Below are positions 7,417 to 62,091 of a stretch of 64,000 bases of DNA, in pieces. The first letter of the stretch is position 1, and every line of letters begins with the position of its first letter. The notes under the pieces were generated by a model. It was not told the DNA's origin. It saw only the letters and a list, made by a program, of their open reading frames with translations, and did not search any database. The translations under genes and the position numbers were made by a program. The DNA is from a virus, in the IMG/VR virus record IMGVR_UViG_3300037805_000525, positions 1-64,000 of that record; one strand, given 5' to 3'.

Positions 7417-7701
7417 TCAATTATCACACTGTGATAATTGTTTCTTACTGCGCACCTCTCTGCGTATGGCGTCTAGGCAGTTCCGTTCTGCGTCACGCAA
7501 CATCGCCCATAGCAGCGTGAGTTCGTCCGGCTCGAGCTTGCGCGTGTAGCAATCAATCCATGGTCCGCCCAGGCTTACCTGCCCTACGACATCGCACGCG
7601 AATACGTCCGTGTCGCGCGTCCCCACCCGGTAGTGTATGCCAAACATGCACTGGCTCAGGCGGATGGACGTGAGCATCTTCGCGGATCGGGTGATAGTCA
7701 T
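7417..7701 (-). CDS. hypothetical protein
   Basis: GGGAG RBS before ATG 7701; the 3' end overlaps the palindrome. Confidence 0.45.
   Translation of the reverse strand: MTITRSAKMLTSIRLSQCMFGIHYRVGTRDTDVFACDVVGQVSLGGPWIDCYTRKLEPDELTLLWAMLRDAERNCLDAIRREVRSKKQLSQCDN
7421..7437. repeat. 17-bp palindrome copy 1 (centre ACT)
   Basis: TTATCACACTGTGATAA, extended CAA..TTG. Confidence 0.95.
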
Positions 7702-7738
7702 GTGCGCTCCCTGTGCGTGGTACACCACTCTACCGCCC

Positions 7739-7774
7739 GCAGCCACGTGCGCTTATCTGGCATAAGAGTTTTGC
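7739..7774 (+). promoter_or_regulatory. phage promoter motif
   Basis: GCAGC-N15-GGCATAAG. Confidence 0.7.
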
Positions 7775-7805
7775 GAAGCACCCACAGCTTACGCAGGAGG
7801 ATTCA

Positions 7806-9140: not shown

Positions 9141-10571
9141 ATGCCCGACGAAGTGCGAGCGCCACTCACACAATTTGTGGTGTCTAGAGAAGATGGACGA
9201 GACCTACCAGGCGGTGACCTGGAGGGTGCCGAGTACATTGTGCTCGACATCACAAACAACCGCTACGCAACTACCGGCGTACACGCGTACGCCCGGTCAA
9301 TCGCGCGTAAATTCCCAGAGCTTGCAGAGTCGCTGCGCGCAGCGGCGCACGCGGCCACTGCTGTGCGTAAGGCAGAGCGTGACGGAGACAAGCCCATAAG
9401 TGCGTACAGCGACGCTGACATCGTCGCTGAGTACGAGAAGCGCGGGTCGCTCGAAGCAGCGGCAGCGAGCCTGAAGGTGACCAGGTACGTGTTCACCAAG
9501 CGCGCACGGGCTGCAGGGGTCGAGCCTTACGAGGCGCCCAGCGCTGCCGCCATACGTGCGGCGTACGATAAGTGTGGATCCGTGCGGCAGGTGGCCGAGG
9601 ATCTCAGTACGTCGATGACCCGGGTGTACGGCTTCGTCGACGTACCCAGGCCCCCAAACACGACTAAGTCCCAGGTACTGAAAGCGTTCCAGGTGCACGG
9701 ATCTCACGCAGCCGCTGCTGCTTCGCTTGGTCTCAAGGAGCACACCTACAAAGATCGTTTCAGAGACGCGGGTGGGTACGGGCGGCGCACCCTGAACCGG
9801 GCGCGTATCGTCGCGTCGTGGCGCAGGGGAAACAGCATACGAGACGTGGCGCGGCAGAACAGCGCGAGCACTTCGTCTGTGCGACGCATTCTAAGTGAGG
9901 AAGGTGTGCGGAAGGCGCAGCCCGTTCTTGGGCCCAGCGTCCCGCACTCGACCTTCATGGCTATGTACGAGCGCTGGCCAACGTCAAACACGACAGCTAG
10001 CGCGGCGCTTGGGATGGCCGCGTCATCGTATCGGTCGCGCGTTGCCCGTGCGCGTAAGCGCCCCGAATACGTCAAGCCGTGCCCGCGCAGGGCGGCCAGC
10101 AGATTGCTGCGTTGCCCGGATGTGTCTCTGACCGATTCGCTCGCTGGGCGCCTGACTGCGGAGGTCTATGTCTCCTTGGCGCGCGAGGAGCGCCTTCACG
10201 TCAGATGCTTCGGCGGTGACCAGTTCAGCGAGCTGATCCTGCGCGCAGACGCCGCACAGGCTGTGTCGGAGCAGCTACGTGGGTTTGCGCTGCTAGGCAC
10301 GCTCCCCGCTCAGCCAGGACCTATTCCACGCTACGCGTTCTTGGACGAGCTTAGCAACGAGGGCGCTCTCTACAACAGCGCGTACGTTGCCGAGCCCAGT
10401 TGCTGGTTTGGGGCTTGCGTCGCGAGGACCAAAGTATCCAGCACCAACTCAGTGCGAGGCGCCATGATACAACTCACGGCAGCAATGGCAACAGAGGTTG
10501 CCGGGGCGCTTGACCGATTCATTGAGTGGGAGCGTACGAATGAACCCTTGGAATCGAGACTGGGACCCTGA
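9141..10571 (+). CDS. multi-HTH DNA-binding protein (about 5 tandem HTH units)
   Basis: Repeated I..AY...GS...AA..LG.S....Y.R units; GAGG RBS. Confidence 0.7.
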   Translation: MPDEVRAPLTQFVVSREDGRDLPGGDLEGAEYIVLDITNNRYATTGVHAYARSIARKFPELAESLRAAAHAATAVRKAERDGDKPISAYSDADIVAEYEKRGSLEAAAASLKVTRYVFTKRARAAGVEPYEAPSAAAIRAAYDKCGSVRQVAEDLSTSMTRVYGFVDVPRPPNTTKSQVLKAFQVHGSHAAAAASLGLKEHTYKDRFRDAGGYGRRTLNRARIVASWRRGNSIRDVARQNSASTSSVRRILSEEGVRKAQPVLGPSVPHSTFMAMYERWPTSNTTASAALGMAASSYRSRVARARKRPEYVKPCPRRAASRLLRCPDVSLTDSLAGRLTAEVYVSLAREERLHVRCFGGDQFSELILRADAAQAVSEQLRGFALLGTLPAQPGPIPRYAFLDELSNEGALYNSAYVAEPSCWFGACVARTKVSSTNSVRGAMIQLTAAMATEVAGALDRFIEWERTNEPLESRLGP

Positions 10572-11867: not shown

Positions 11868-11884
11868 TTATCACACTGTGATAT
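11868..11884. repeat. 17-bp palindrome copy 2 (ACT)
   Basis: TTATCACACTGTGATAT. Confidence 0.95.
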
Positions 11885-14805: not shown

Positions 14806-14961
14806 ATGGTCCGGTGGATGGCCCGCTCGAGCTCAGTGCGGACCCGAAAGACTACGTAACGGACGACTGAGTGTCGCACACGATCTCGTCCGACGCAGTG
14901 CGTGGGCCGTACGTGTTCGAGCCGAGTTAGCTCGTCAGCGCGGCCCACGTCTGGGACTGGA

Positions 14962-14978
14962 TTATCACACTGTGATAG
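14962..14978. repeat. 17-bp palindrome copy 3 (ACT)
   Basis: TTATCACACTGTGATAG. Confidence 0.95.
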
Positions 14979-17591: not shown

Positions 17592-17643
17592 CCGCGAAGA
17601 CGCCGCGCGCGGCTACAACTAGGCGGTGACGTCTGGGACTGGA

Positions 17644-17660
17644 TTATCACGTTGTGATAA
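17644..17660. repeat. 17-bp palindrome copy 4 (GTT)
   Basis: TTATCACGTTGTGATAA. Confidence 0.95.
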
Positions 17661-20713: not shown

Positions 20714-20730
20714 TTATCACGCTGTGATAA
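20714..20730. repeat. 17-bp palindrome copy 5 (GCT), between convergent genes
   Basis: TTATCACGCTGTGATAA. Confidence 0.95.
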
Positions 20731-21105
20731 TTACCACCCGTCAAGCCGGCGGTCCGCCGCTTTGGCGCGCCACACCTCGATAAAGAACCCACACACGTAT
20801 AGCCCGTAATGGCCTTCTACTGTGTGCGCTACGTACGGGTACCACTTGAGCGGAGTGTCCTCATCCCACCCCCACCCGATCAGACACATCAGCGTACGTT
20901 TCCAGGGGCGGAGTCCCGTTGCGAGAAAGACTGCGGCAAAGCTGTCGGGACCTGACAGGAACCACCCGGCTTCGGTCTGAACCGCGCACGTTGTCTTCAG
21001 TGCTCGGATCCTCAGCGACAGGAGCGGGCCATTGGTTATGTTCGCTTCGGTGCCGCAGAACATTGCGCGCACGCCAGACCACACGGTGCGCAGTGCGTCT
21101 CTCAC
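20731..21105 (-). CDS. hypothetical protein
   Basis: GTGA overlap with upstream gene; Trp-rich C-terminus. Confidence 0.5.
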   Translation of the reverse strand: MRDALRTVWSGVRAMFCGTEANITNGPLLSLRIRALKTTCAVQTEAGWFLSGPDSFAAVFLATGLRPWKRTLMCLIGWGWDEDTPLKWYPYVAHTVEGHYGLYVCGFFIEVWRAKAADRRLDGW

Positions 21106-22442
21106 GACTTCTCTACCTTTTCCGCGTTGTACACGTCGCCGAAGGGGTTCTCCGCAGTGCGTGTACACACGGGGATGTACCCCACGGGATGATTTGGATC
21201 ATCGAGTGAGTAGACCGGGATGGTGCCCCGCGGCCGTGTCTTGCGTTCGGAATCCTCCTGTGCTGCGAGCGCGCCGAACGCACGGATGGTGTCCTGGGCG
21301 TCGGTTGTACGGATCAGTGGCCGCTTGGGTTCCTGAGCCGCTTGCGCGGGCTGCACAATGAACCCTGGGTCCACATCTCGCCCAGAGCGCGCCGCCTTCG
21401 CCACCTGCGCCGCACGCAGTTTGGTTGCCGCATCCGCGAAGTGGCTCGGCTTGAACGCAGCGCGATCGAACCAGATGCCCTTGGGATCGTCGGTTCGCCA
21501 CATGAACATCGCCTCGGCGTCCTCGTTGATACCGAGCGCGTACCCGAGCGGGTGCAGGACGTTGCGGTTGATCTCTGCGAGCGCGCCAGTCGACCAGATT
21601 TCCGTGTAGTCCGCCGTCGTCGCGTGCGCGTACTGGTTCTTGGGTAGGTGGAACTGCGTGTTCGCTGCGCCGGCTAAGCGGTTCGTCTGCCGGAGTACCT
21701 CTGCGATGACCTCCTGAGCGAGCGGACCCATCCCCGCGAGGTCCTCTGGCTGGCAGTACCGGCACAGTGCGTTGGTGATGCGCCACGCGAGCTTCTTGGT
21801 GTTCTCGGTTACTGCGTACGCGTCGTCTTTCAGGGACTCATCACGCGTGGCGGGGTAGCCCTCCATAGCTGATCGGAAGGTGCTGTCAGCCGGGATGGGC
21901 TCAGTTGTACAACCCATGCTGTAGGGCACTGGCTTGCCAGACTCTAGCCGCGCTGCTAGATCCCCCGCGTACGCCTCCCACCCTGGCCCGCGAGAGGCGT
22001 CGACCGCGCGCCTTGACTCGGAGGATAAGTGGCGCACGCCCGGCGCCTCTGCAATGGGTACGGGCATGCCTGGAATAGCTGGTGCTGGTCCGGAGATGAA
22101 GACGTCACCATTTGCGTTGACCTCTGTGCGTTGCGGGACATGCGCGACGGTTAGCGAGCACCGGTGCTTCTCGGCATCCTCGTCACTGAGTTCCGCAATG
22201 ACGAGGACGTCCGCCTTCTCCAAGATGAGGTGGGTCACCCCAGCAATGCTGATCTCAGTCCCGGCACCCTCCGCAAAGAAGACGTGGTTGCCCTCTTTGA
22301 TCGCCTCGAACGCGTACAGGTTGTCAGCCAGCTGGGACAGTCCTGGGTGCACAACTACGCCGTGGGGGGACGTGCTGTGCGGGTGCTCCAGCCTGTCTAG
22401 GCGTTTAACAAGAATTGTGCCGGTGGGTGTGAACAGCTTCAT
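21102..22442 (-). CDS. GroES/Cpn10-like domain fused to a long C-terminal region
   Basis: ILVKR...GVVVHPG...IKEGNHVFFAEGAGTEISIAGVTHLILEKADVLVI matches the Cpn10 pattern; GGAGG RBS at ATG 22442. Confidence 0.7.
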   Translation of the reverse strand: MKLFTPTGTILVKRLDRLEHPHSTSPHGVVVHPGLSQLADNLYAFEAIKEGNHVFFAEGAGTEISIAGVTHLILEKADVLVIAELSDEDAEKHRCSLTVAHVPQRTEVNANGDVFISGPAPAIPGMPVPIAEAPGVRHLSSESRRAVDASRGPGWEAYAGDLAARLESGKPVPYSMGCTTEPIPADSTFRSAMEGYPATRDESLKDDAYAVTENTKKLAWRITNALCRYCQPEDLAGMGPLAQEVIAEVLRQTNRLAGAANTQFHLPKNQYAHATTADYTEIWSTGALAEINRNVLHPLGYALGINEDAEAMFMWRTDDPKGIWFDRAAFKPSHFADAATKLRAAQVAKAARSGRDVDPGFIVQPAQAAQEPKRPLIRTTDAQDTIRAFGALAAQEDSERKTRPRGTIPVYSLDDPNHPVGYIPVCTRTAENPFGDVYNAEKVEKS

Positions 22443-22471
22443 GCGCGCCTCCGTGTTGAGTGCGCAATGTA

Positions 22472-22867
22472 CTACACCTGCGCTACAGGCTCCGCAGAAT
22501 TGATCCGAAGCCATACGGCGGGGAACGCAGCTTCCGCGTCTGCACACGCATCCACGAAGCTGAGCGAGGGTGTTGGGAGGAAGAACGTGGTGCTGCTGGC
22601 GTAGCGCGTGTCACCTGTCCGGTCCCACATACCAAGAATCGTCCAGTACGCTACGTGCGTGAGCAGCGCCCGGCTCTGCTTCTGCATTGACCTGCGGTGG
22701 GACACAGTGTTTGTGCCCGGTGCATACGTGCCGTCTGGCGTAAGCGGCAGCCCTTGCTCGCGCAGCATTGTGTACGACGGGTGGTGGCCAGCCGCTGTGT
22801 AGTACCGGTGCCCTACGGCACCCCACACACCAAACATTACTGGGGCGCGCTCTACGGTTTCGGCCAC
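22472..22867 (-). CDS. hypothetical protein
   Basis: GAGG RBS; GVWGAVGHRYY...WDRTGDTRYASSTTF. Confidence 0.65.
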   Translation of the reverse strand: MAETVERAPVMFGVWGAVGHRYYTAAGHHPSYTMLREQGLPLTPDGTYAPGTNTVSHRRSMQKQSRALLTHVAYWTILGMWDRTGDTRYASSTTFFLPTPSLSFVDACADAEAAFPAVWLRINSAEPVAQV

Positions 22868-22903
22868 GGGAACCTCACTGCCTTCTAAGTGTCCCCCCCA
22901 AGA

Positions 22904-22920
22904 TTATCACACTGTGATAA
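22904..22920. repeat. 17-bp palindrome copy 6 (ACT)
   Basis: TTATCACACTGTGATAA. Confidence 0.95.
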
Positions 22921-22949
22921 TGGCCTACTTCTTGGCATAAGACATTTAG
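22914..22949 (+). promoter_or_regulatory. phage promoter motif; upstream element position occupied by the palindrome
   Basis: GGCATAAG-N5-TAG at 22934. Confidence 0.75.
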
Positions 22950-23025
22950 TGGGCGGGCAGCACACACGCCTCGACCCTGATGGGGAGTTCCCATCGACGC
23001 ACGTAGACATTCCTGAGGAGAGTTC

Positions 23026-23592
23026 ATGGATCTTCGAAGTTTCACGTCCCTTCTGTGCAACGGCGCCAATCTGCTTGCTGTTGAACAGCGCTACGCCTCC
23101 ATAGACTTCTCTTCGTACGGGCACCGTTTCGTCACGATCCAGTACGCGGGTGTGCACGTTGCGGCGCTCGCGCTACCTGACAAGTTCGTGAAGGCGATCT
23201 CCCGTGCACACGCTAGCGCCAGCGCTACTACGCCGCTGGTCCAGCTGTTCATGTACTGCTGCTACGACAACCTGGCAGCTGCGGCGGCCGCATCCACCGA
23301 TTACACACTCACCACGCCTCGTGGGCGCGTCCCGCACCGGGAGCTCGCTCTAGCGGCCATCCTCAGCGTTATGGGCAGCTGCTGGGTGAGCCAACACATC
23401 GGGCGGCTCCGCACCAGCGCACACGATTCCTGGGGCATGACTGGATTCTCGGAAACGCTGAAGCCTGTGACAGCGGACCACAAGACTAAGTTGCACGCGC
23501 TGGCGAAGCGCGCGTTCCCGCAGTTGGAAGAGTTTGCAGCAACGGCTGCGATGTTCGGGCACCTGCCCGAGGAGGGAAGTGAGTATGCGTGA
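23026..23592 (+). CDS. hypothetical protein
   Basis: GAGGAG RBS after promoter. Confidence 0.7.
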   Translation: MDLRSFTSLLCNGANLLAVEQRYASIDFSSYGHRFVTIQYAGVHVAALALPDKFVKAISRAHASASATTPLVQLFMYCCYDNLAAAAAASTDYTLTTPRGRVPHRELALAAILSVMGSCWVSQHIGRLRTSAHDSWGMTGFSETLKPVTADHKTKLHALAKRAFPQLEEFAATAAMFGHLPEEGSEYA

Positions 23593-24058
23593 TCGTTATG
23601 AAGGGCTACGGCAAAAACTCGAGGGCGCGATGAGTACGTGCGGTGGCGACGTGTTCGACCCCGACGAGTGCGCGGTGTTGGCAAGCTTCGTCCCTGATCG
23701 GCTTACGCGCGTGGTTGGGCCGCGGTACATCGTGCCGCCGGCGGACACTTTTATGGACCGTGTGTACGCACTCGGGTGGTTTGAGGACGACGACGGCGAC
23801 GCGCTTCGGTGGATGGTGGAGCTCACGAAAGCTGAGGCGGACACGCTACAGTACATCGACGAGGTGTACCCAGATCGAGACGGCCTGCAGCCGATACGTT
23901 TCACACGGAAGGGGTTAGTATTCGCACTCCACGACTGGTGCGTGCTCTACGAGATCATCGAGCGCTGCGTCCTCGTATGTCAGCCGGCTGAACTGGCGTT
24001 CGCAGAGCGCCTGCTTGGTCTGATGGGCTTCGACTGGGCGCCTAAGGTCGATGTGTGA
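23585..24058 (+). CDS. hypothetical protein
   Basis: GGAGG RBS. Confidence 0.7.
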   Translation: MRDRYEGLRQKLEGAMSTCGGDVFDPDECAVLASFVPDRLTRVVGPRYIVPPADTFMDRVYALGWFEDDDGDALRWMVELTKAEADTLQYIDEVYPDRDGLQPIRFTRKGLVFALHDWCVLYEIIERCVLVCQPAELAFAERLLGLMGFDWAPKVDV

Positions 24059-24180: not shown

Positions 24181-24190
24181 CGCGATTTGT

Positions 24191-24217
24191 GGGGACCGCA
24201 CGGTCCCCTGTTTTTAG
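24191..24217 (+). terminator. hairpin + TTTTTAG tail
   Basis: GGGGACCG/CGGTCCCC stem. Confidence 0.75.
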
Positions 24218-24227
24218 ATAACGAGAA

Positions 24228-24244
24228 ATATCACACTGTGATAA
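24228..24244. repeat. 17-bp palindrome copy 7 (ACT)
   Basis: ATATCACACTGTGATAA. Confidence 0.95.
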
Positions 24245-24250
24245 TCGCAG

Positions 24251-28379: not shown

Positions 28380-28396
28380 TTATCACACTGTGATAA
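28380..28396. repeat. 17-bp palindrome copy 8 (ACT)
   Basis: TTATCACACTGTGATAA. Confidence 0.95.
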
Positions 28397-28438: not shown

Positions 28439-28444
28439 TAGCGC

Positions 28445-32744: not shown

Positions 32745-32761
32745 TTATCACACTGTGATAA
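32745..32761. repeat. 17-bp palindrome copy 9 (ACT)
   Basis: TTATCACACTGTGATAA. Confidence 0.95.
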
Positions 32762-35972: not shown

Positions 35973-35989
35973 TTATCACACTGTGATAA
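35973..35989. repeat. 17-bp palindrome copy 10 (ACT)
   Basis: TTATCACACTGTGATAA. Confidence 0.95.
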
Positions 35990-41979: not shown

Positions 41980-41996
41980 TTATCACAGTGTGATAA
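41980..41996. repeat. 17-bp palindrome copy 11 (AGT, inverted polarity)
   Basis: TTATCACAGTGTGATAA. Confidence 0.95.
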
Positions 41997-45582: not shown

Positions 45583-45995
45583 TATGGCTTGGCCGGGGCG
45601 GGTGCGGGTGCGGTGGCTTCGCGTAGCTGCTTGATCGTGGCGAGCACCTTGTACTTGAGCAGTGAGATCTTGGCCATCTCGGTGCGGCCGCCTGCGTACA
45701 TGGCGTCGGCGGTATTGAAGGGCAGCTCCACATCTGCCGAGTCAACCGGCTCAGGCAATGGCGGACCAATCTTGGCGATGCGTCGGTCCACCGACTCCAG
45801 AAGACTGAGCCCCGTGTAGAAGGAGTCGGCTCGAGTACTGCTCTCGATGAACTGCAGCGCCTCTTGTAATACTTCGTGGATCTTCTCTTGCTGCAGCTGC
45901 GTGGTCTTGGCTGCAGCAGGCACCTGGTAGGGCAGCGGTATGTTCGCTGGGCTCAGCAGGTTGTCTACGCCGAAGACAAATCGTTCATCAGGCAT
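45582..45995 (-). CDS. hypothetical late-region protein
   Basis: Overlaps upstream stop; GGAG RBS. Confidence 0.65.
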   Translation of the reverse strand: MPDERFVFGVDNLLSPANIPLPYQVPAAAKTTQLQQEKIHEVLQEALQFIESSTRADSFYTGLSLLESVDRRIAKIGPPLPEPVDSADVELPFNTADAMYAGGRTEMAKISLLKYKVLATIKQLREATAPAPAPAKP

Positions 45996-48471
45996 CGTCG
46001 ATCTCCGCGATGTAGTCAGACATGAGGGACGTGCCGAGCGAAGAACTCGCCGCAGGCTCGCTGCCGTATGTACGCATTGCTGCAGCGAGCAGTGCCTCTA
46101 CGGAGTCAGTGTCTGTGAGCGACGTGGGCTCCGTCAACCCGAACACGGACCACTCGAGCGCCATGAGTTTGGTGTGTACCCAGCTCAGGTTGGCTTGGTG
46201 GAGTGCGTTGGACAGGTCAGCGAGCTCCTGGGGTGCGGCGGCACTGTAGCTGGACGACGCGCTGGCTATGCCGTCGAAGATGAGCATGAGCGTGCTGCGT
46301 ACATACGCCCAGGCATCCGGAGACACGCCGTTGAGTGGATGCTGCAGACCAGGGGCGTAGCGTTGGTCTGCTAGTAGCTTGCGAACGGTACGCAGTGTGC
46401 CGCGTAGGTAGCTGGCGGTTACCGGTGTGGTCGTGGGGCCAGCACCATAGATTGCCGCGCCTGCTTCTGCGTAGGCTGCCAGGGTGACCACGCCGCCCAT
46501 GGACGAGCGAACCTCCGCCCATCCGCCGAGGGGGCCGACTGCGTAGTCGCCGGCGCGGATACGGTAGCGAGGACCCGACGCAGTGTATGAGTAGCGGGGC
46601 TGGGTGGCGAACGCCTCGTCGGGCAGTCCGAACTCAGGCCCAGGTCCTCCCCCGGGAACAAGCTCAAAGAGTTGGTTGGAGTCGATGACAAGCTCTGTGG
46701 TCTCCAGGGCGAAGGTGATGTCTACGCTGCCGGCCACGCCCAGTACGTCCAGAGGTAGGACGATAGGGGTGAGCAGCGTGACCTGGGTGGGGTTGGCGGA
46801 GACGACCTGGTGGTACCCGTCGTATGGGGTAAGGACGTGCAGGAACGCAGCTTGTGTTCCGTCGGCTACGTCAATGAGGCTCGCACCGGCTGCGGTGATG
46901 GTGGCTGCGGCAGGCGGGCTACGGTACTGCGTGTTCTGCGTAGGGACGATGTCTAGCGCAGCCGGGTTGGTAATGGTGAGGTCGTTGAACCATACGTCAA
47001 CGCCGTAGCCCTCTACAGGCACGGTGGTGAGTAGGTCATTGAGCGTGGTGGGTGGGGTGATCCAAGTGACGCCATCTACTGCAGTGCTGAGCACGGGAGT
47101 GGTACTGCCCATGGGGATACCCATACGAGCTGCAGAGCCTGCGGTGTCGTAGGTGAACAGCAGATTGCCGCCGGTGGTGTGCACACAGTCTACCGAAGCC
47201 GTAAAGTTCGAAATCTCGGTTGCGAGTTCGGACAGGTTGTACTTCACCGGAGGGGCAAATATCACAGTGTGATAAATCGAATTACCTGCTGCGACGGTGA
47301 CTGTGTAGAAGGGTGACTCGTCGGTTACGAGGTACTTGCGGTAGCTGAAGTGGAACTGCGTGCCGACGGGCAGTTCTTGATCGGTGCCTGGCACAGTGAG
47401 GTCAGCGTAGGCAATAGTGACCTTGCCGGACGTGTAGTCGATGCCGCTAGAAATGTCGAGCGGCCAACCACTTACGCTGACTAGGTTGCCGGTTCCGTCG
47501 TCCGTTATGTGGTCGTTGGCTACGTGCAGCACCAGGGAGCCCGGTACGACATGTTCTCGCAGCGTTCGAACGTACGGACCCTTCCCGCCAGGTGCGTTTA
47601 TCGAGTGGATCCCACTAAACGGGGCAGCCAGGTCCGCACCGTAGACAGAGGTAGTGGTAGCCATCGCCCGGATGGCTGCGGGGGAGGAGATGGTCACCGT
47701 ATTTCCCGGCTCGCCCGAATACTGCAACTCTGCGGAGTCGGTACTCAGGCTGTGGAGCGGAAACGTGCTCCCTTCCATCTTGAAGGGGCCGACCGCAACC
47801 AGGTCTGTGCCCTTTGGGGCGTCTAGGTCTATGTCGACCGCGCTCTCTTCGACAACAGAGGCGGACACAGCGGCTATTGCGGACAAATCCTTGGTTGCGG
47901 TGCCGTCCGGGCGCACGTTAGCTCGTACAGCGTCGTCTACGCTCTGTACAACACGTCTGCGCGTAGCAAAGGCGACGTCTGCCGCCTCCCAGGCTGTACG
48001 AGAGCGTGTAAGCGCGTTCAGTGCAGTCTCGAACTCTACTAGTGCAAGCTGGATCGAGCGCACAGCATTTATCACAATGTGATAATCCACCTCGCTGGAC
48101 GCGGCGGTGGACGAGGCGGACAGTTCGTTGAGAGCGCGCACTGCGCCGCTGCTGCCCTGGTCAAGGTGCAGCAGCGCGTTGTCCGCGGCGTCCACGCTCT
48201 CTGTTGTCAGGGTCTGCGTAGGCGCTCTGCGGGTGGATATGAGCGTAAGGAGGTGTTCCCGCGCTGTACTGGACTTGGCGGCGAGTGTACGAAGGTATGT
48301 GCCGTAGATGGCGTAGTACCCGCATTGGTCGTACTGGAGTGTGCGTGAGCAGAGGTCTAGTGCAACCTCCAGTATCTCCGCGGCTGTCTTGCCTCGCATC
48401 GTTCCGAGATCTACGCTCGGGGACAACCCCTGAGCTAGTCCCGCGATGTAGGCCTCAGAATATCGAGGCAT
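45988..48471 (-). CDS. virion structural protein (tail/baseplate-like)
   Basis: VVPGSLVL....ITDDGTGNLV.....GIDYTSGKVTI beta motif typical of tail/baseplate proteins; contains two palindromes. Confidence 0.65.
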   Translation of the reverse strand: MPRYSEAYIAGLAQGLSPSVDLGTMRGKTAAEILEVALDLCSRTLQYDQCGYYAIYGTYLRTLAAKSSTAREHLLTLISTRRAPTQTLTTESVDAADNALLHLDQGSSGAVRALNELSASSTAASSEVDYHIVINAVRSIQLALVEFETALNALTRSRTAWEAADVAFATRRRVVQSVDDAVRANVRPDGTATKDLSAIAAVSASVVEESAVDIDLDAPKGTDLVAVGPFKMEGSTFPLHSLSTDSAELQYSGEPGNTVTISSPAAIRAMATTTSVYGADLAAPFSGIHSINAPGGKGPYVRTLREHVVPGSLVLHVANDHITDDGTGNLVSVSGWPLDISSGIDYTSGKVTIAYADLTVPGTDQELPVGTQFHFSYRKYLVTDESPFYTVTVAAGNSIYHTVIFAPPVKYNLSELATEISNFTASVDCVHTTGGNLLFTYDTAGSAARMGIPMGSTTPVLSTAVDGVTWITPPTTLNDLLTTVPVEGYGVDVWFNDLTITNPAALDIVPTQNTQYRSPPAAATITAAGASLIDVADGTQAAFLHVLTPYDGYHQVVSANPTQVTLLTPIVLPLDVLGVAGSVDITFALETTELVIDSNQLFELVPGGGPGPEFGLPDEAFATQPRYSYTASGPRYRIRAGDYAVGPLGGWAEVRSSMGGVVTLAAYAEAGAAIYGAGPTTTPVTASYLRGTLRTVRKLLADQRYAPGLQHPLNGVSPDAWAYVRSTLMLIFDGIASASSSYSAAAPQELADLSNALHQANLSWVHTKLMALEWSVFGLTEPTSLTDTDSVEALLAAAMRTYGSEPAASSSLGTSLMSDYIAEIDDA
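47259..47275. repeat. 17-bp palindrome copy 12 (AGT), intragenic
   Basis: ATATCACAGTGTGATAA, encodes YHTVI. Confidence 0.95.
48069..48085. repeat. 17-bp palindrome copy 13 (AAT), intragenic
   Basis: TTATCACAATGTGATAA, encodes YHIVI. Confidence 0.95.
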
Positions 48472-48869
48472 TAGTCACAGCTTTCGGGGTTGGTTCCGCG
48501 CAGTCGGCGGATGCCTTGTGCGTCAGCAGTACGGGCCAGCTTACGGACCGTGTGCGGGGAAATGTTGAATGCACCGCATACCGACTCGAACGAGTAGATG
48601 TACGTGGCTGTCTTGAAGTCCGTGATCAGGTCAAATATCCACGACGCAGCATCAGCGCCTAGCTCACGCTTCTGCGCGTCTGGGCTGGACCGGTACAGTA
48701 CATAGTCAGAGACGCCACGACGTAGGACAGCCAACATGAGCTGTGCCGCCCCGGAATCAGCACCCTGATGCGCACGATCCAGTTTGAGGCACTCACACGT
48801 CTGTGGGTCGCAGAGGCCGAGCTGCTTGAGCGTGCACTCGTAGTTTGGATTGTGCTTATTCCTGCTCAC
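48471..48869 (-). CDS. conserved hypothetical protein, possible DNA-binding (LMLAVL..G..DY...A.WIF...SF..VC...NI.P..VR)
   Basis: Recognisable family pattern plus N-terminal Cys cluster. Confidence 0.7.
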   Translation of the reverse strand: MSRNKHNPNYECTLKQLGLCDPQTCECLKLDRAHQGADSGAAQLMLAVLRRGVSDYVLYRSSPDAQKRELGADAASWIFDLITDFKTATYIYSFESVCGAFNISPHTVRKLARTADAQGIRRLRGTNPESCD

Positions 48870-53637: not shown

Positions 53638-53654
53638 ATATCACAGTGTGATAA
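53638..53654. repeat. 17-bp palindrome copy 14 (AGT), downstream of promoter
   Basis: ATATCACAGTGTGATAA. Confidence 0.95.
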
Positions 53655-53983: not shown

Positions 53984-55327
53984 TCAGCTCGTGAGTAGGT
54001 AGCCGCCGCCAGCGACCCCTGCGGCCGGAAGGAGCCGCAGCATCTCGTTCTTGACGCGTTCTGCACGGATGCGGGCGGACAGCGCGGTGATTCCACGCGC
54101 TGTCCCAAGACCTGCCACAGAGCCCGCCAGCGCGCCAGGGACGGCCTTGCGTGCGAGCAGCGACCCGGCAACTGCGCCGAGCATCGGTAGGGACCGCAGA
54201 GCTGACGCGGACTTGACGTTGGCGCCAAGCAACTCACGTAGCTTGCGCACAGCAGCGCGTGCAGCCGCCGGCGGGTCCATACGTGTCTCTACTGATCGCA
54301 CAGGATTCAGAAGGTCATGCAGGTTACGGTTTGGCCGCACTCGGCCAAGGAGATCAAGGCGCCCACCCGCGGGGGCTCGCAGCTGGCTCCGCACCAGGCG
54401 CGACAGCTCACCGGGTACCGCAATCGCGCGCTGCAGGATTTCTCGGGCACCCGCGGTCTTCTCGTGAGACACCTTGGTGACCGGGGACCCTGCGCGCCAC
54501 AACGCTTGGTTGAACGCATCGTGGAACGGCGGATCGAACTTCCTACCTGCCGCGACCCGGTCGTAGCGTGCCTGTGCGGCTGCGACGTCGGCGGGCATTC
54601 CGCGTGCCTGCGCGGCTGCGCGTCGGTGCGTGGGGCTTGCTGCCCGGCGCGCACCCGCCATTGCCGGACGCATACGCATACGCAACCAGCTAAGCAGCCC
54701 AGGTACGGATTTCACGCCCCGGCCTGCCATCCGCGCACTACCTAGTAGGCCACGGCCTGCCAGCCGCGCCCCGCCCACTGCGCCCTTACCAAGAAGCCGA
54801 GCGCCGGCAACTGAACCAATGAGCGCGGCGCGGCTGGCTGGGTGGTTCATGGCCCTTGTGAGGCCATGGCCTAGGTCCCAAGCCATGTTGCTGCGCAGGT
54901 TGGAGAAGATCTTGCCGAACGGGATAGCCGCCTCTTTAACAGGGAGCTGATCCGCGGCGAGGTGTGCCGCGACAACGGCGTCTTCAGGTGTTTCGCCGGG
55001 GCGGCCTATTACGCTCCGTGTCTTGTCGCCGAGCATGTCGGCTAGTTCGTCACGGTTGTGGTACGCCAACAAGCCGGCGCCAGCGGCGGCCAGAGGCAGG
55101 TACGGGAACGACCGACGTGGCCGTACCGTGTGGCCAAGCAGCGCGGCCGCGGCAACAGGTGTCAGCGCACCGACTGCCGCGATTCCCGCATCGCGCGCAA
55201 ACGTGGTTTGCGCGCTGGACCTCTTCTCGCGAAGCTCGGCCATGACGCGGCTACGCACGCCGCGGCGCTCAGCGTGCGTAGCCGCACTGACGTGTATGGT
55301 AAGTCTTGGTGAGTCCATTATGCTCAT
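53984..55327 (-). CDS. basic Ala/Arg-rich probable internal virion protein
   Basis: KEAA, EKTA, VKSA motifs; Gly-zipper hydrophobic stretches. Confidence 0.6.
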   Translation of the reverse strand: MSIMDSPRLTIHVSAATHAERRGVRSRVMAELREKRSSAQTTFARDAGIAAVGALTPVAAAALLGHTVRPRRSFPYLPLAAAGAGLLAYHNRDELADMLGDKTRSVIGRPGETPEDAVVAAHLAADQLPVKEAAIPFGKIFSNLRSNMAWDLGHGLTRAMNHPASRAALIGSVAGARLLGKGAVGGARLAGRGLLGSARMAGRGVKSVPGLLSWLRMRMRPAMAGARRAASPTHRRAAAQARGMPADVAAAQARYDRVAAGRKFDPPFHDAFNQALWRAGSPVTKVSHEKTAGAREILQRAIAVPGELSRLVRSQLRAPAGGRLDLLGRVRPNRNLHDLLNPVRSVETRMDPPAAARAAVRKLRELLGANVKSASALRSLPMLGAVAGSLLARKAVPGALAGSVAGLGTARGITALSARIRAERVKNEMLRLLPAAGVAGGGYLLTS

Positions 55328-56223
55328 GGTGCCTCGTCCAGGTATCCGCGCAATCTCTTCGCGAGGTCCTTTTTTATACGTGATACTCGGTAGCTTTCGA
55401 TGCCGAGCTTTTCTGCGATCTCGCCGGTGCCCAGCATGGGGGCCCCGAGCCCTACAACGTGTCGGTAGACCTTCTCGTCTTCCCCGTCCAACTCGTACAC
55501 GAACATGCGCATGACCTCAGTCTCGCGCTCCGTGGTCATTGTGGTGGGGTCAACCTCAAAGTTCTGACTTACCAGGTCCCCACGTAGCTCAGTGTCCATC
55601 CGGGCGACTTCGGCCTCGGACCAGTCCAGGTGGTCCGCGAGCTCCGCGTCTGTCGGTGTGCGCTTGTGCTGCTCGGACAGTTCCGCGTGAGCGACGGAGT
55701 ATCCCTGAATCTTGTAAACACGGTTCTCTGGGATGCGCGCCACATTCTGGTGCGCGGCCACGTAGCGCTTCACCTTGTGTAGATGGTTCGCAATGTGGGT
55801 GTTGAGCTGTGTTCCACGTTCCGGGTCGTACGTGCGCAGTGCCTTGACCGTACTTAACTTGTACTGCGCCATCAGTGCCTTGTCCGGGATCATCCGTACG
55901 CGGCCCATGTGAATCTTGGCACGTGATTTGATGAACGGGGTCAGGCTCTTCATCAGCGGGGCGAGCTTCTCAGGATCTTCGCCAGAGTCCTTCCACGCCT
56001 GCCACATCGCCATCTCAGACTCACGTCGAGACAGCTTCATGGCGTCGGCAGCACGCTCTTTGACGCCATCACGCGTGTAGCGGGTGACGATGGTGAGCGC
56101 GCCGTCGCGCTTCTTGCGCAGGTGGGCCTTGACGTCGATGCGTCCGGCGGGTCCGGCGGGTGCGCGCTTCTTCTCGGCGAGCTTCAGAAACTCCCCGATA
56201 TGATCTTCACTCGAGGTCGTCAT
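55324..56223 (-). CDS. RNA polymerase sigma-70 family sigma factor (SigB/F/FliA-like regions 2-4)
   Basis: KALRTYDPERGTQLNTH (region 2), RIPE...LSEQHKRTPTDAELADHLDWSEAEV (region 3), GEIAEKLGIESYRVSRIK (region 4 HTH). Confidence 0.88.
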   Translation of the reverse strand: MTTSSEDHIGEFLKLAEKKRAPAGPAGRIDVKAHLRKKRDGALTIVTRYTRDGVKERAADAMKLSRRESEMAMWQAWKDSGEDPEKLAPLMKSLTPFIKSRAKIHMGRVRMIPDKALMAQYKLSTVKALRTYDPERGTQLNTHIANHLHKVKRYVAAHQNVARIPENRVYKIQGYSVAHAELSEQHKRTPTDAELADHLDWSEAEVARMDTELRGDLVSQNFEVDPTTMTTERETEVMRMFVYELDGEDEKVYRHVVGLGAPMLGTGEIAEKLGIESYRVSRIKKDLAKRLRGYLDEAP

Positions 56224-58157: not shown

Positions 58158-58174
58158 ATATCACAGTGTGATAA
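58158..58174. repeat. 17-bp palindrome copy 15 (AGT), between convergent genes
   Basis: ATATCACAGTGTGATAA. Confidence 0.95.
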
Positions 58175-58357: not shown

Positions 58358-61300
58358 TTGTCGTCCGCCTCTTCAGCAATGCGCCCTGTAGTAGCTTGGC
58401 GCGTATGTAACGTTCTTCACGAACGTCGATGGTGGGCGAGACGGGCGTCTTGGCCGTCTCCCCGGGTGATGGTTTTATGAACTTGGGTATCAGTTCGCTG
58501 CCGTCCCACCGAAGTAGTGCGTTGGCGGGGATAGGTGCGCCGTCGCGAGAGTCGTAGTCAAGTGTGCCCCACACAGCCCGCGAGCGGCGCTCACCGCTGT
58601 AGAACGCCTCCGCATGGAAGCCGGACCGCTTCGGGTCCCACAGCAGCGCCTCCGCCTGGTCTCGGGTATTTATGTCGATGTCCAGGTTCGCGTTACCTGC
58701 GAACATATCGGCGAACCCGGCGTACTTGCGTGCGATGTACCCGGTTGTGTAGTAGGGGACGTCGCCGCCGGCGTTGCGGATTTCAACCCACGTGCGCGCC
58801 AAGTGCTCCGCCGCGTCGAGTATCGAGTGCTTCTTCTCGAAGAACGTGCGTGGTACCTCGAATGTCTGGTCGCTCGATGGATCCTCTACGTCGAGCTGGA
58901 CAGTGACGTTGACCGCCTCATCCACCAGGTTGCCCTCGCTGTCGAAGTCTCCCGCTCCGGATGGGTCCAGACTAAGGACATCTGAGCTTGTCACGTCGGC
59001 GACGCTGCGGGATGCGGTCGTCCGAACGCCGATCCCCTCAGTGGCCTCCGCACCACGCGCGTCCGTGAACGTACCTTCGTCGATTATGGACGGGCACCCA
59101 ACTACGATGTCGTAGTACTCCTTGCCGATGTTTGACGCATAGAACGACGCGTCAAACCAGGGTGGTGTCAGCAGGTCCTCATTGTCGTACGTGACGGTGA
59201 CCTCCTTAGAGGACGTGCCGCTCTCATAAATGTCGACCACCACACCACTATGTCCGGATAGGCTGGACTGTTTACCGTTAGGGCCGTCGGTGAGTACGTT
59301 GTACCTGTAGCTGACAAACCGCGCGCCTGACGGGTCGATCTCCTCCCCGCCGTACCCGAGTATCTCGCGGTCGCGCCCAACAAGTCCCTGCTCCGCATCC
59401 TGGTCGTTGTAGTTCTTCACGCTGGCCACATACTTGCGGCCCTTGACGCGAGCGTACTCACGCGCACCAGGCTTGAGCGCGAGTGGTGCGCCGTGGCCGA
59501 GAGGCCCGCCCGCGCGCCCGGTGAACCCGGTGCTGCCGGGTACGCGGGCTTCGGTCTTTATGTAGTCGCTGAGCGGTATCACGCCTACTGGTGTCCCAAC
59601 TGGCGTTCCGCTTAGTACATCCGCGCTCGGGCCGGTCGCGTTGTAGACCTGCTGGCTAACAGCTGTCGTGTGATCCTGGATCATGAACAGCTTGTCCAAC
59701 GCACCCAGCTTCCGCCGGATGCGCGCGTCACCCTTCTCGTTGAAGAGCGCGCCGTCCGCGTGCGGAACCACGAACTGGCCCCCGCCCGTGGGCGTAAGCT
59801 TCCTGCGGAACCTACGCATAACATCACGGCGGACCTGGCCCCTCTCCTGGAAGAGGTCTAGGTGCTCGTCGTGGTACCTGCATTTGGTCAGCTGCACCGT
59901 CGTACTCGTGTGGCCGTCGGCGAGGCCATGCGATACGGAGCTCACCATCCCTAGAATGTGCCGCGCGGTGTGTGGCGTTGCCGCGTCGTCAGCAAGTGCG
60001 TGGTCGAGGACCAGCGCAGGAAGGCCGGGCACCAGGTTAGGCATGTACTGCCCAGTGACGGTGCATTGTCTGGAGGCGAAGCGGCTCAGGTAGAAGTAGT
60101 AGTTCGCCGCACGCTGTAGGTAGTTGTTTTTTGTATGCGCTGTGCGGTTCTCGGCCTCCTTCTTACTCACGCGCTTGGACCGGATTGCGGCCTTCATGAT
60201 CCGCCCGAACGCGTCGTCCTCGTCTGCCGACCGGATGTCGGGGATGATGCCGGTGAACCGCTCGTGGTCCATGATGAACCGGTGGCCTTTTGTCACGGCC
60301 TCCTTCGCGGAAATGGTCGCAGATGTCTTGGACTTGGCCTTGAACCCGAGCATGTCGACATTCGGCGCGAAGTACATATTTTTCTTGTCACGCCCGCTGT
60401 TGTAGCGGGTGAACAGCCACAGGCGCGTTGTCTCTGTTAGCCACCGACGCGTAAGAGTGACTGATGTGATCTGGTTAGGGAATATGGTGTTGCACTTCGG
60501 CGGCGGCGCCATGTACAGGTCAGGCATGAGCAGGTACGCATGGAGGCGGTCTCCATACTCGGCATCGACCTCGGTGGTCTTGTATATGCCGTGCCTGCCT
60601 GTACGGAGGTGTTTCAGTGCCTCCGCGAGCAGCCCTCGTGCGGCGCGGAGATTCGGAAGGTTATGTTGGAGGTAGGCGCCCTGAGAGACGGCGACTAGCG
60701 CACTCAACGGGGCGCGCCACGCCGCGAGCAGTGCGTTTAGTCCGTTGCGCAACTTCTGCAGCTTGGACTTGGACCCCGCTACTGACTCCGCCTCCTTCTC
60801 GAACTGCGCCTCCAGCTTTTCGATACCACCTGCGGCGTAGAACGCGGGGAACCCGGTGCCTGTTATGCGCTTGTCAAACAGCGCGTGTTGCTTGCCTGCG
60901 GGCTCCAGCTTCGTGGCGCCTAGCTCGCTCTGCGCGGTGTCCCACCGTGATATGTCCACGCCGTCTGGCGCGGTACGCACCACCTTGATCGCGAAGTCTA
61001 GTCGCGTACGTACGATCTTCTCCATCTGGTCGACCATCTTGAACAGGCGGTCCGCCTCTGTGCCTGCGCCCACGGTTCCGATTCGTACACTTACCTTGCG
61101 CTTCCCGCGCTTGCTGTTGAGGGGCATGTACGGCGGCGCGAGCACCCCAGCAGTACCGTGGAACGTCTTGCCTAGTACTGCGTGTATGAGCTGAGACACG
61201 CTCGCCGTGGCGCGTATGGAGCTGCTAATCCTACGGAAGTGGCGCTTGAACGACGCGTCGTCGATGAACAACCTGGACGTCGTGTCTGAGAACGGGAGGC

Positions 61301-61997
61301 CCAGCATGTGGGTCAGATTCAGGCGGACACCATTGAACGTGAGGAAGTCGTTCAGCCCCTTCGCATACCTGAACACCTTCGCAGTGTTGGTCTTTACCTT
61401 GTTTCCGTGTGAGTTAGGCCCTCCCGGATAAGCCCCGACCGCCAACTCAATCAGGGATATGACGCTGCCGCTGACGCCGTTCAGATGCGGGGCCGAAGTT
61501 GGTTTGCGGCTTAGGATCATCGGAAGTTGGTTGTGCCCGGTGTTCTTCCCGATCTGCGTCGTGACGGCTCCCGCGAATGCGGTACGTCGCGTGTCGTGTG
61601 CGCTGAGGGATCGCGAACCCCAGTACAGCTTCGCGTGGTCCAGGTAGCTCCACATGCCCGTGCACGAGTACGCGACCACCTGCCCGGTAGGTGTGCTGCG
61701 GTACGAGTACGAGTCGATCTCGCCCACGAACAGTAGCTTCCACAGGGAAAGATCATGATGTGAGCTTGCGTGCGTAAGGACGCCGTCCGGTGCGACAGTC
61801 ATCCCATTGTGCGCCTCGAAGTACCACACGGTCACGTACGTGCGTGGCTTCAGTAGCGTCGCTTCACGCACGTATGGTACTGCGATCTGCGCCTGCGTCG
61901 GCGAGCCGATCCCGCCGGACACAGACACAGAGGAGACGGGGACCTCTACACCCTCAACGACCAGGCGTGTTACAACTTTGCCGCCGCTTACAGACAC
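58347..61997 (-). CDS. baseplate hub-like (gp27/GPD-type) structural protein, 1216 aa
   Basis: RLVVEGVEVPV...AQIAVP...LKPRTYV..WY...LLFVGEI...SC...SYLD; later C.VTG.Y.PNLVPGLPALVLD...G.VSSV.H. Confidence 0.65.
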   Translation of the reverse strand: MSVSGGKVVTRLVVEGVEVPVSSVSVSGGIGSPTQAQIAVPYVREATLLKPRTYVTVWYFEAHNGMTVAPDGVLTHASSHHDLSLWKLLFVGEIDSYSYRSTPTGQVVAYSCTGMWSYLDHAKLYWGSRSLSAHDTRRTAFAGAVTTQIGKNTGHNQLPMILSRKPTSAPHLNGVSGSVISLIELAVGAYPGGPNSHGNKVKTNTAKVFRYAKGLNDFLTFNGVRLNLTHMLGLPFSDTTSRLFIDDASFKRHFRRISSSIRATASVSQLIHAVLGKTFHGTAGVLAPPYMPLNSKRGKRKVSVRIGTVGAGTEADRLFKMVDQMEKIVRTRLDFAIKVVRTAPDGVDISRWDTAQSELGATKLEPAGKQHALFDKRITGTGFPAFYAAGGIEKLEAQFEKEAESVAGSKSKLQKLRNGLNALLAAWRAPLSALVAVSQGAYLQHNLPNLRAARGLLAEALKHLRTGRHGIYKTTEVDAEYGDRLHAYLLMPDLYMAPPPKCNTIFPNQITSVTLTRRWLTETTRLWLFTRYNSGRDKKNMYFAPNVDMLGFKAKSKTSATISAKEAVTKGHRFIMDHERFTGIIPDIRSADEDDAFGRIMKAAIRSKRVSKKEAENRTAHTKNNYLQRAANYYFYLSRFASRQCTVTGQYMPNLVPGLPALVLDHALADDAATPHTARHILGMVSSVSHGLADGHTSTTVQLTKCRYHDEHLDLFQERGQVRRDVMRRFRRKLTPTGGGQFVVPHADGALFNEKGDARIRRKLGALDKLFMIQDHTTAVSQQVYNATGPSADVLSGTPVGTPVGVIPLSDYIKTEARVPGSTGFTGRAGGPLGHGAPLALKPGAREYARVKGRKYVASVKNYNDQDAEQGLVGRDREILGYGGEEIDPSGARFVSYRYNVLTDGPNGKQSSLSGHSGVVVDIYESGTSSKEVTVTYDNEDLLTPPWFDASFYASNIGKEYYDIVVGCPSIIDEGTFTDARGAEATEGIGVRTTASRSVADVTSSDVLSLDPSGAGDFDSEGNLVDEAVNVTVQLDVEDPSSDQTFEVPRTFFEKKHSILDAAEHLARTWVEIRNAGGDVPYYTTGYIARKYAGFADMFAGNANLDIDINTRDQAEALLWDPKRSGFHAEAFYSGERRSRAVWGTLDYDSRDGAPIPANALLRWDGSELIPKFIKPSPGETAKTPVSPTIDVREERYIRAKLLQGALLKRRTTNDE

Positions 61998-62074
61998 AGC
62001 ACCACCCTCAGGTAGTCATCTTCGTGAACTTCGATGTTACTACAGATGCGCAGCGGCGGCACAGCAGTGCTTGA

Positions 62075-62091
62075 TTATCACAGTGTGATAT
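62075..62091. repeat. 17-bp palindrome copy 16 (AGT), between co-directional late genes
   Basis: TTATCACAGTGTGATAT. Confidence 0.95.

Follow-up and report, generated by a model that had tools for sequence, protein, structure and literature searches.

Results and Discussion

The window, a stretch of 64,000 nucleotides from an uncultured virus record, carries 16 exact copies of the palindrome TATCAC-N3-GTGATA (Table 1), whereas none is expected: 100 dinucleotide-preserving shuffles gave no match. Adjacent copies are separated by 810 to 6007 bp with a mean of about 3.6 kb. The number of copies and their spacing agree with a previous sequence-only reading of this DNA, whose positions referred to the first base of the 17-mer and are therefore one lower than those of the cores. 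Independent gene calls also reproduced the placement given there, with ten copies near promoters, two between convergent genes, one between co-directional genes and two inside a coding sequence.

Table 1. Palindrome copies (15-bp cores) and selected genes in window numbering, with placement according to gene calls made anew.
Feature	Position	Strand	Remarks
copy 1	7422..7436		ACT centre; divergent intergenic region; followed by TTTCTTAC tail
copy 2	11869..11883		GGYATAAG promoter-like motif 54 bp downstream
copy 3	14963..14977		promoter-like motif downstream; 16-bp upstream flank in common with copy 4
copy 4	17645..17659		GTT centre
copy 5	20715..20729		GCT centre; between convergent genes
copy 6	22905..22919		divergent region; 29 bp 5' of promoter-like motif
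copy 7	24229..24243		terminator-like hairpin on one side, promoter-like motif on the other
copy 8	28381..28395		
copy 9	32746..32760		
copy 10	35974..35988		
copy 11	41981..41995		AGT centre; divergent region
copy 12	47260..47274		within 827-aa minus-strand CDS 45988-48471
copy 13	48070..48084		AAT centre; within the same 827-aa CDS 45988-48471 (-)
copy 14	53639..53653		
copy 15	58159..58173		between convergent genes; adjoins bidirectional terminator-like hairpin
copy 16	62076..62090		between two co-directional minus-strand genes
HTH_58-domain protein, 476 aa	9141..10571	+	generic HTH_58 match; alternative candidate binder
phage sigma-factor-like gene	55324..56223	-	Sigma70 region 3; outside the array

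According to the sequence logo the complete site is a 21-bp palindrome, R-AT-TATCACA-C-TGTGATA-AT-Y. Conservation ends there, and since none is seen beyond the 21 bp the copies are independent, protein-sized sites and not parts of a mobile element. No copy of the core with one mismatch was found, and allowing two mismatches yielded only two additional, chance-like hits in the window. Lone half-sites are depleted, with 15 TATCAC observed (25-39 expected) and 0 TATCACA (5-8 expected). An assignment as lambdoid cI/Cro operator, a 17-bp site clustered at the immunity region, was rejected, as the palindrome occurs with N3 spacing only (N5-spaced TATCAC palindromes are absent), its copies are scattered along 160 kb, and the families returned by the Pfam scans did not include cI/Cro. 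The likeness of TATCAC to the lambda operator is coincidental.

The sequence-only reading had proposed to scan the full genome, to examine the regularity of spacing and to look for the motif in the host. The array indeed continues past the window, with 24 copies in the whole 109,093-bp virus record and nine more on an adjoining 50.7-kb contig that continues the phage genome. This adds up to 33 exact cores in the about 160 kb examined, which comprise contigs of an incomplete genome, or one palindrome per about 4-5 kb. The spacing is significantly more even than chance, with CV values of 0.40 (P about 2e-4) and 0.29 on the two contigs. In the bacterial genomes of the species collection the exact 17-mer occurs only as 44 single hits, about as many as expected by chance, and nowhere as an array. 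The source phage is large, marine, virulent-looking and myovirus-like.

Most copies are located near promoters or terminators. A plus-strand GGYATAAG promoter-like motif follows nine of the 16 window copies at a distance of 29-84 bp; one further copy is located downstream of such a motif. The sigma-factor-like gene (Table 1) provides a context for these non-canonical promoters, and the phage also encodes its own fused beta-beta' RNA polymerase.

Two genes of the window and, more generally, ParB or HTH genes elsewhere had been suggested as source of the binding protein. The best candidate is of the latter kind, a gene of the ParB/Noc/KorB family that occupies record positions 79386-80636 and is located 15 kb past the window. 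Both in-window genes proved weaker: 9141-10571 exhibits a generic HTH_58 match only, and 48471-48869 gave no Pfam match at E <= 0.001 when scanned together with 95 other proteins (eight families returned). Besides the ParB-type protein, one generic HTH protein and the sigma factor were the DNA binders recognised among 96 small and medium proteins.

In the ParB-type protein, P0001, an N-domain with arginine patch is accompanied by an HTH of the ParB type and a domain predicted to mediate dimerisation, and the basic tail resembles histone H1. A profile of P0001 and 12 homologues matches Spo0J (E 9e-19) and Noc (E 8e-18) over N-domain and HTH, the HTH part reaching domain E-values of 6e-13 and 1e-10, respectively. 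In a Foldseek search with the AlphaFold model of P0001 the best matches were Noc, KorB and ParB, each with probability 1.00; Noc is the top structural and the second-best sequence-profile match. Another family member (P0005) matches Pfam HTH_ParB above the cut-off. In the 13-sequence alignment G98 and R101 of the GxxRxxA arginine patch (DGQRRLAA in P0001) are invariant, as are N183 and R186 of the ENxxR box. The glutamate of the catalytic E-N pair of ParB is replaced by I/L in P0001-P0003, so that CTP hydrolysis may differ in these proteins.

A symmetric homodimer of P0001 was modelled via residues 274-327 with a score of 0.42, compared to 0.00 for the best control; since ParB-family dimers have already been solved, the score may stem from resemblance to these. 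The mark applied to the score was reached by 20 of 30 solved one-chain pairs and one of 23 solved single chains. Individual runs share at least 82% of the contacts, with a partner pLDDT of at least 76. Known ParB C-domains gave no sequence match in the C-terminal region. The N-terminal 35 residues comprise 13 D/E and no K/R, with pLDDT below 50. With respect to GC3, parB ranks third among 113 genes, alongside the capsid genes, and this capsid-like codon usage suggests an abundant protein. An AAA-ATPase gene with a homologue in phage Catdawg adjoins parB. No ParA (CbiA, PF01656) turned up in the 160 kb of this phage or in the search of G000, G001 and G002, in which each of the 14 control genomes gave a match, and none of 14 family members contains an LG[KR]GL-type ParA-binding motif.

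To compare related phages, array-bearing relatives were sampled through ParB homologues and hence among ParB-encoding genomes only. Two distant relatives contain palindromes that are likewise AT-rich and odd, yet unlike the TATCAC type: 17 copies of ATTAAC-S-GTTAAT in 42.5 kb of G002 (CV 0.48, P 0.001) and 16 copies of TATTA-N5-TAATA in 20.7 kb of L100. The recognition helices differ as well, reading ITQ..[IV]SQY.TV in G002 and L100 versus RAQAWVSGAVSV in P0001, and this difference parallels that of the half-sites. In each of the three phages parB is preceded by a palindrome at a distance of 72-159 bp, and in two of them another one follows its stop codon after 4-10 bp. The positions of the sites turn over among the relatives. 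Three terminase relatives without this ParB family, two of them fragments and one a genome of 175 kb that is 98% complete, contain no AT-rich palindrome array; these array-negative genomes are distant or fragmentary.

In the sequence-only reading the palindrome was taken as putative target of a phage protein that binds as a dimer and would mark the genome as a whole instead of controlling individual promoters. This view gains support from the extension over the whole genome, the even spacing, the invariant cores, the depleted half-sites, the copies inside genes and the turnover of positions. We consider it probable that the palindromes are genome-wide loading sites of the phage's own ParB clamp. 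The proposed pairing of P0001 with the palindrome is correlative and derives from co-occurrence and co-variation in three phage lineages. Dimers of P0001 would use their HTH domains to recognise the 21-bp palindrome and then, by analogy to ParB, KorB and Noc, may bind CTP, close as a clamp and slide onto the flanking DNA. From sites every 4-5 kb, clamps and H1-like basic tails could together coat the entire phage chromosome, which measures at least 160 kb. Due to the absence of ParA, partition is unlikely as the purpose; the array would more likely serve genome-wide marking or compaction of the phage DNA and/or a KorB-like long-range damping, whose targets would be the many promoters 30-85 bp from palindromes.

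A further-reaching version is viral "chromatin", in which an abundant late CTP clamp with H1-like tail coats only the phage chromosome. Such a coat might distinguish self from host DNA and thereby shield the phage DNA against nucleases or defence systems; alternatively it might guide the phage RNA polymerase and sigma factor to their own DNA or condense the DNA for packaging. We regard this version as rather unlikely. If true, virulent phages would widely employ the ParB fold in a way not yet described, and the repeats of Cluster O mycobacteriophages would be explained as well.

Since most phage proteins lack a recognisable family, the actual binder may be a different, unrecognised dimeric protein of phage or host, with ParB being incidental. 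The HTH of the 9141-10571 protein would make it one such candidate, but it has no homologue in the examined parts of G002 and L100. A host protein is disfavoured by the lack of 17-mer arrays in the bacterial species collection. Moreover, the ParB family is the class known to recognise dispersed arrays of 13-16-bp palindromes; three diverged lineages combine ParB with an array and with sites flanking parB, and their recognition helices change along with the site. A different binder is clearly improbable. The palindromes could also be targets of a DNA-acting enzyme, i.e. for nicking or cleavage as in T5-like nicks or packaging cuts, as modification mark, or as hot spot of cassette recombination. 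Recognition sites of enzymes typically have an invariant core and no degenerate copies, as is the case here, the palindromes often border gene cassettes, and one contig end of run X4 joins the copy at 24229 to the sequence after 28381, which may be a short-repeat alignment artefact. However, 21 bp is far above the usual site length of methylases and nickases, and neither the even spacing nor the co-varying ParB is predicted by an enzyme target, for which we see only a very small probability. A Tet/JBP domain was not found either, with the control genomes being equally silent.

The surroundings of the palindromes deserve closer attention, as mostly intergenic copies close to promoters and terminators leave room for a role in transcription. 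Here the palindromes would act as terminator, RNA-processing hairpin, unit boundary or extended -10 promoter, the latter suggested by the likeness of TGTGATAAT to an extended -10 element. In total 27 of the 33 copies are intergenic, typically 4-57 bp past a stop codon, with convergent genes on either side of four of them. T-rich tails of the TTTCTTAC type, similar to nearby terminators, follow three of the 16 window copies (7422, 14963 and 17645), and as RNA the palindrome can form a hairpin of -6.1 kcal/mol with an AT-rich stem. In the record the central base follows the local gene strand (15:2, P 0.002), a co-orientation that is unexplained by a symmetric dimer. This polarity is, however, absent on the continuation contig (2:3) and in G002 (8:8). 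About half of the copies in G002 and L100 lie inside well-supported genes, their sites fold weakly (L100, -3.2 kcal/mol) or cannot fold (G002, 0 kcal/mol), and the -10 likeness is lost. The distance to the promoters is variable, and a generic terminator would not need an invariant AT-only stem; GC-rich ordinary terminators adjoin several copies. A function in transcription or RNA has only a very small probability. Intrinsic terminators in particular were rejected owing to the AT-rich stem, the few T-rich tails and the poorly folding, often intragenic sites of the relatives.

For the ParB loading sites, comparison with known systems is instructive. CTP clamps of the ParB family have known roles in the partition of chromosomes and plasmids, in nucleoid occlusion and in the silencing of plasmid genes. 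ParABS systems, including the N15 plasmid prophage with its dispersed centromeres, employ a ParB-family HTH protein on a palindromic centromere-like site. In contrast to the single cluster or handful of sites there, tens of even sites occur here, with no ParA or LG[KR]GL motif found. Closer is Noc of Bacillus subtilis, a cellular, ParA-less ParB paralogue that spreads from many dispersed palindromic NBS; like the present array, these extend over the whole replicon. Noc anchors DNA to the membrane by an N-terminal amphipathic helix, whereas the N-terminus of P0001 is strongly acidic. In the IncP plasmid RK2, 12 unevenly spaced OB operators of KorB are found on 60 kb, compared to at least 33 evenly spaced sites in a large virulent-looking phage.

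KorB, among the top structural matches of P0001, consists of an N-terminal CTPase fold, HTH and dimerisation domain; its OB is an odd palindrome with C/G centre, and the clamp silences promoters by sliding over distances of up to about 1.5 kb (PMC11790492). Similar to the phage, RK2 carries one palindrome around the whole replicon in promoter-proximal and distal copies (PMC11790492). Differences are the H1-like basic tail and acidic N-terminus of P0001 and the marginal sequence likeness of KorB to the ParB-family profile (E 0.03-0.04). KorB further has two partners, ParA (IncC) and KorA, the latter locking the clamp. Neither turned up in the phage, the KORA family being absent at E <= 0.001 from the Pfam scan of 96 proteins.

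The stoperators of Cluster A mycobacteriophages resemble the array in that a single short site is dispersed in tens of copies over the phage genome, many of them away from promoters. Each stoperator is an asymmetric site that follows the direction of transcription and is recognised by the immunity repressor of a temperate phage (PMC4351075). A stoperator reading was rejected because the site is a true 21-bp palindrome with inconsistent centre orientation and no repressor/integrase module was found; neither integrase nor repressor was among the families returned by the Pfam scans.

A partner-less ParB with evenly distributed loading sites over the whole genome of a virulent-type phage would, if true, constitute a new use of the CTP-clamp switch. 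It raises the question of how large phages mark, organise and protect their DNA without a modified base or nucleus-like shell. The clade offers natural diverged pairs of ParB and palindrome suited to specificity swaps and orthogonal DNA-labelling tools. ParB loading sites would also readily account for a decade-old puzzle in Cluster O mycobacteriophages. Corndog and Catdawg contain more than 30 palindromes with invariant 7-bp arms and 3-bp centre; about a third of these 17-bp dyad repeats lie in genes, and the phages have no ParA, integrase or lysogeny (PMC4351075). The repeat was left without assigned function and was not tied to the ParB-like protein by the authors (PMC4351075). Cluster O thus shares with the present phage more than 30 invariant-arm palindromes phage-wide and a ParB-like gene without ParA. 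The repeat sequence, TGTTCGG-N3-CCGAACA, is unrelated, and its copies crowd to the right genome end whereas the spacing is even here; Cluster O phages are siphoviruses of another host phylum, in contrast to the myovirus-like phage. Our recount gave 34 exact copies of the dyad repeat in Catdawg, and its ParB-like gp90 aligns by hhalign (probability 96%) with both the N-domain and the HTH of the phage ParB family.

Extent and anatomy of the array

The repeated palindrome TATCAC-N3-GTGATA forms a real and highly non-random array, and its most probable binder is an orphan ParB (P0001) encoded outside the window. All 16 copies that the sequence-only reading had located in the window were recovered, compared to none in 100 dinucleotide-preserving shuffles. 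Allowing up to two mismatches added only two chance-like matches and no single-mismatch copy. A scan beyond the window revealed that the array continues, with 24 copies in the whole 109,093-bp IMG/VR record (estimated completeness 61%), whose first 64 kb make up the window. An exact 15-mer scan of IMG/VR returned one other many-copy contig, of 50,656 bp with nine copies. Its start overlaps the end of the record with 100% identity, and the synteny of a relative crosses from the end of the record into the start of this contig. Both are therefore pieces of one genome, with a joint total of 33 palindromes in approximately 160 kb; the assembly break between them is probably due to a repeat of about 136 bp.

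The 33 aligned copies constitute the 21-bp palindrome R-AT-TATCACA-C-TGTGATA-AT-Y with 12 invariant core bases. Because conservation stops at 21 bp, a mobile element or MITE was ruled out, and the copies are independent, protein-sized sites. Lone half-sites are rarer than expected from Markov models: TATCAC occurs 15 times outside palindromes (expected 25–39), the 7-mer TATCACA not at all (expected 5–8). Gap CVs of 0.40 for the record (P ~2e-4) and 0.29 for the second contig show that the copies are spaced far more evenly than by random placement, also when the intergenic/coding split is preserved. According to our own gene calls, 27 of the 33 copies are intergenic, while the non-coding share of the DNA is about 10–13%. 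These typically lie 4–57 bp past a stop codon, and four copies are found between convergent genes; five or six copies fall within solid genes of the record and second contig. In the window, nine copies occur 29–84 bp upstream of the promoter-like plus-strand motif GGYATAAG and one downstream. The register over these motifs is thus variable, in accordance with the earlier statement that no fixed distance to promoters is kept.

Arrays in related phages

Searches of GenBank phages and IMG/VR turned up no close relative. A 12-kb piece of the window had no megablast match among GenBank phages, and tblastn with the ParB gave none at E ≤ 1e-3 and just scraps of the N-domain at E ≤ 10. A search for related loci by ParB in viral and metagenome contigs found none, and a word-indexed protein search returned the query alone, probably due to its low-complexity tail. 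Relatives could be traced to contigs solely via the ParB homologues P0026 and P0009, the latter encoded on a 179-kb contig. These are a 42.5-kb IMG/VR contig (G002, ParB 25% identical by BLASTP) and 20.7 kb of a metagenome contig (L100, ParB 28% identical), both sharing a syntenic structural module with the phage at 30–55% amino-acid identity.

Both relatives carry an array of their own. G002 contains ATTAAC-S-GTTAAT 17 times, one per 2.5 kb (CV 0.48, P 0.001), with seven or eight copies inside well-supported genes, and its motif was found again on more contigs, both from that sample and from others. L100 contains TATTA-N5-TAATA 16 times, one per 1.3 kb. The layout is common to all three phages, an AT-rich, odd-length palindrome with C/G centre that tiles the genome; the word differs, and the second helix of the helix-turn-helix (HTH) varies in parallel with it (RAQAWVSGAVSV in P0001 vs ITQSLISQYNTV and ITQGAVSQYKTV in the two relatives). 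A site is located 72–159 bp upstream of parB in all three phages, and a second one 4–10 bp past the parB stop in G002 and L100. Sites do not keep their places with respect to orthologous genes, and from this comparison density and spacing seem to be maintained rather than particular promoters. An array of this kind is absent from a terminase relative (175 kb, 98% complete) and from two fragments, none of which has this ParB family; ordinary GC-rich hairpins are all that they show. The relatives traced by ParB are the strongest evidence for the proposed link between ParB and array. Together with the array statistics they support the inference of the sequence-only reading that the site marks the genome for a dimeric phage protein. 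As to whether host genomes carry the motif, the exact 17-mer gave 44 single matches, scattered over unrelated taxa, in 185,579 species genomes; this is about chance level, so neither a host array nor a prophage form is indicated.

The ParB-family protein

P0001 alone had no family match in Pfam and only weak ParB matches in PHROGs. An exhaustive HMMER search revealed 23 homologues, and a profile from 13 full-length ones matches Thermus Spo0J (E 9e-19), Noc (8e-18) and further ParBs across the N-terminal and helix-turn-helix domains. In the AlphaFold model (pLDDT 74) residues 30–270 are mostly above 85, and the top structural matches are Noc, KorB and ParB. The family conserves its arginine patch (DGQRRLAA in P0001) as well as N and R of the ENxxR box, whose glutamate is replaced by I/L in P0001 and its two closest homologues, P0002 and P0003; the recognition helix of these two, R-x-Q-x-W-V-S-G/F, is close to that of P0001. 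The homodimer model shows a symmetric interface of residues 274–327 with at least 82% contact agreement between runs and a partner pLDDT of at least 76. Its score is 0.42 (best control 0.00), a mark reached by 20 of 30 proteins solved as one-chain pairs and by 1 of 23 single-chain structures, and it may reflect mere likeness, since ParB dimers are among the solved structures. The N-terminus is acidic, whereas the last 70 residues form a PKKAA-type basic tail with 27 K/R; basic tails occur throughout the family. By GC3 parB ranks third of 113 genes, with the capsid genes as its neighbours in that ranking, which suggests an abundant protein.

Alternative readings

A lambda-type operator is ruled out by spacing and distribution of the sites. 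The palindrome could also act as an RNA hairpin, terminator or promoter, for which the intergenic bias and T-rich tails after three copies speak. In the record, furthermore, the asymmetric centre (RYT vs its complement) follows the strand of the genes around it, with 15 copies co-oriented and 2 opposed (P 0.002), an observation for which a symmetric dimer does not account; within the window the contrast is between copies 7422–35974 and 41981–62076. This co-orientation is, however, lost in the second contig (2:3) and G002 (8:8), half of the relatives' sites are intragenic, and these sites hardly fold (0 and −3.2 kcal/mol vs −6.1 in this phage).

Binding by a protein other than ParB is conceivable because most phage genes have no family; among 96 further proteins, Pfam recognised only a generic HTH protein and a sigma factor as other DNA binders. 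The sites might instead be enzymatic targets for nicks, cuts or modification. A search for Tet/JBP dioxygenases, suggested by the thymine dioxygenases that phage ParBs activate (PMC13229309), gave no match here, with control genomes equally silent; unlike P0001, those ParBs have no DNA-binding domain.

Comparison with known systems

With ParB as the probable binder, the system would function most like KorB and the OB operators of plasmid RK2. There, a CTP clamp of the ParB family is loaded at an odd palindrome present in repeated copies and silences promoters by sliding as far as about 1.5 kb (PMC11790492). The array also resembles the dispersed NBS sites of Noc, although the phage protein lacks the membrane helix of Noc proper. 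ParABS partition differs, as a ParA-binding motif is absent from every family member examined and no ParA (CbiA family) was found in the 160 kb and one relative, whereas control genomes matched in 14 of 14 cases.

Among described phage cases, Cluster O mycobacteriophages come nearest: their 17-bp dyad repeat has more than 30 invariant copies and a function that the authors left unknown; these phages have no integrase or parAB, and no lysogens were recovered (PMC4351075). We counted 34 copies in the Cluster O phage Catdawg. Its ParB-like gp90 aligns with the present family across N-domain and HTH, and the AAA-ATPase adjoining parB has a homologue in Catdawg. A literature search found no paper linking such arrays to a phage ParB.

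Further genes and local observations

Coordinates of the features discussed
Feature	Location	Strand	Remarks
Generic HTH protein	window 9141-10571
Copies 3 and 4	upstream of the copies, window 14943-14962 and 17625-17644		common 16-bp upstream flank ACGTCTGGGACTGGAT and T-rich tail
446-aa protein	window 21102-22442	-	GroES/Cpn10-like segment, E 2e-4
Junction in runs X4, X5	window 24247 / 28399
Sigma-factor-like protein	window 55324-56223	-	Sigma70 region 3, E 5e-8
Copies between convergent genes	record 20715, 58159, 66762; second contig 21028
parB (P0001)	record 79386-80636
AAA+ ATPase	record 80724-82409 (L005:16724-18409)	+	phrog_8638, E 3e-113
~136-bp repeat	record (G000) 107330-107465, 108978-109093; second contig (G001) 1-136
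2470-aa single ORF	G001 21048-28460 (L093:1048-8460)	-	Rpb2 domains 2, 3, 6, 7 (beta); Rpb1 domains 1, 2, 5 (beta-prime); LAGLIDADG-like insert

Both relatives show synteny for the AAA+ ATPase directly downstream of parB. Its homologues occur in phages of Rhizobium, Rhodobacter and Pseudomonas as well as in Cluster O mycobacteriophages, and it may be a functional partner of ParB. The shared flank and tail of copies 3 and 4 suggest that a terminator-like module containing the palindrome was duplicated locally.

The public runs containing the phage are all seawater DNA, present as contigs, with no RNA run listed among them; they are nearly clonal (2 differences in 20 kb). Runs X4 (255 letters) and X5 (10 letters) each have a contig end in which the 24229 copy (…GTGATAATCG) continues with the sequence that comes after the 28381 copy. 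This is either a 4.15-kb cassette-deletion variant via inter-palindrome recombination or an artefact of aligning the 19-mer that both places share.

With beta and beta-prime domains joined in one ORF, the RNA polymerase encoded by the phage is a fused one of the multisubunit type. The sigma-like protein may act with it in reading the non-canonical GGYATAAG...TTTAG promoters, which occur on the plus strand only, about 45 bp ahead of plus-strand genes. Small genes of the record include DHFR (Pfam E 1e-46), a NUDIX protein and a RecA-like protein.
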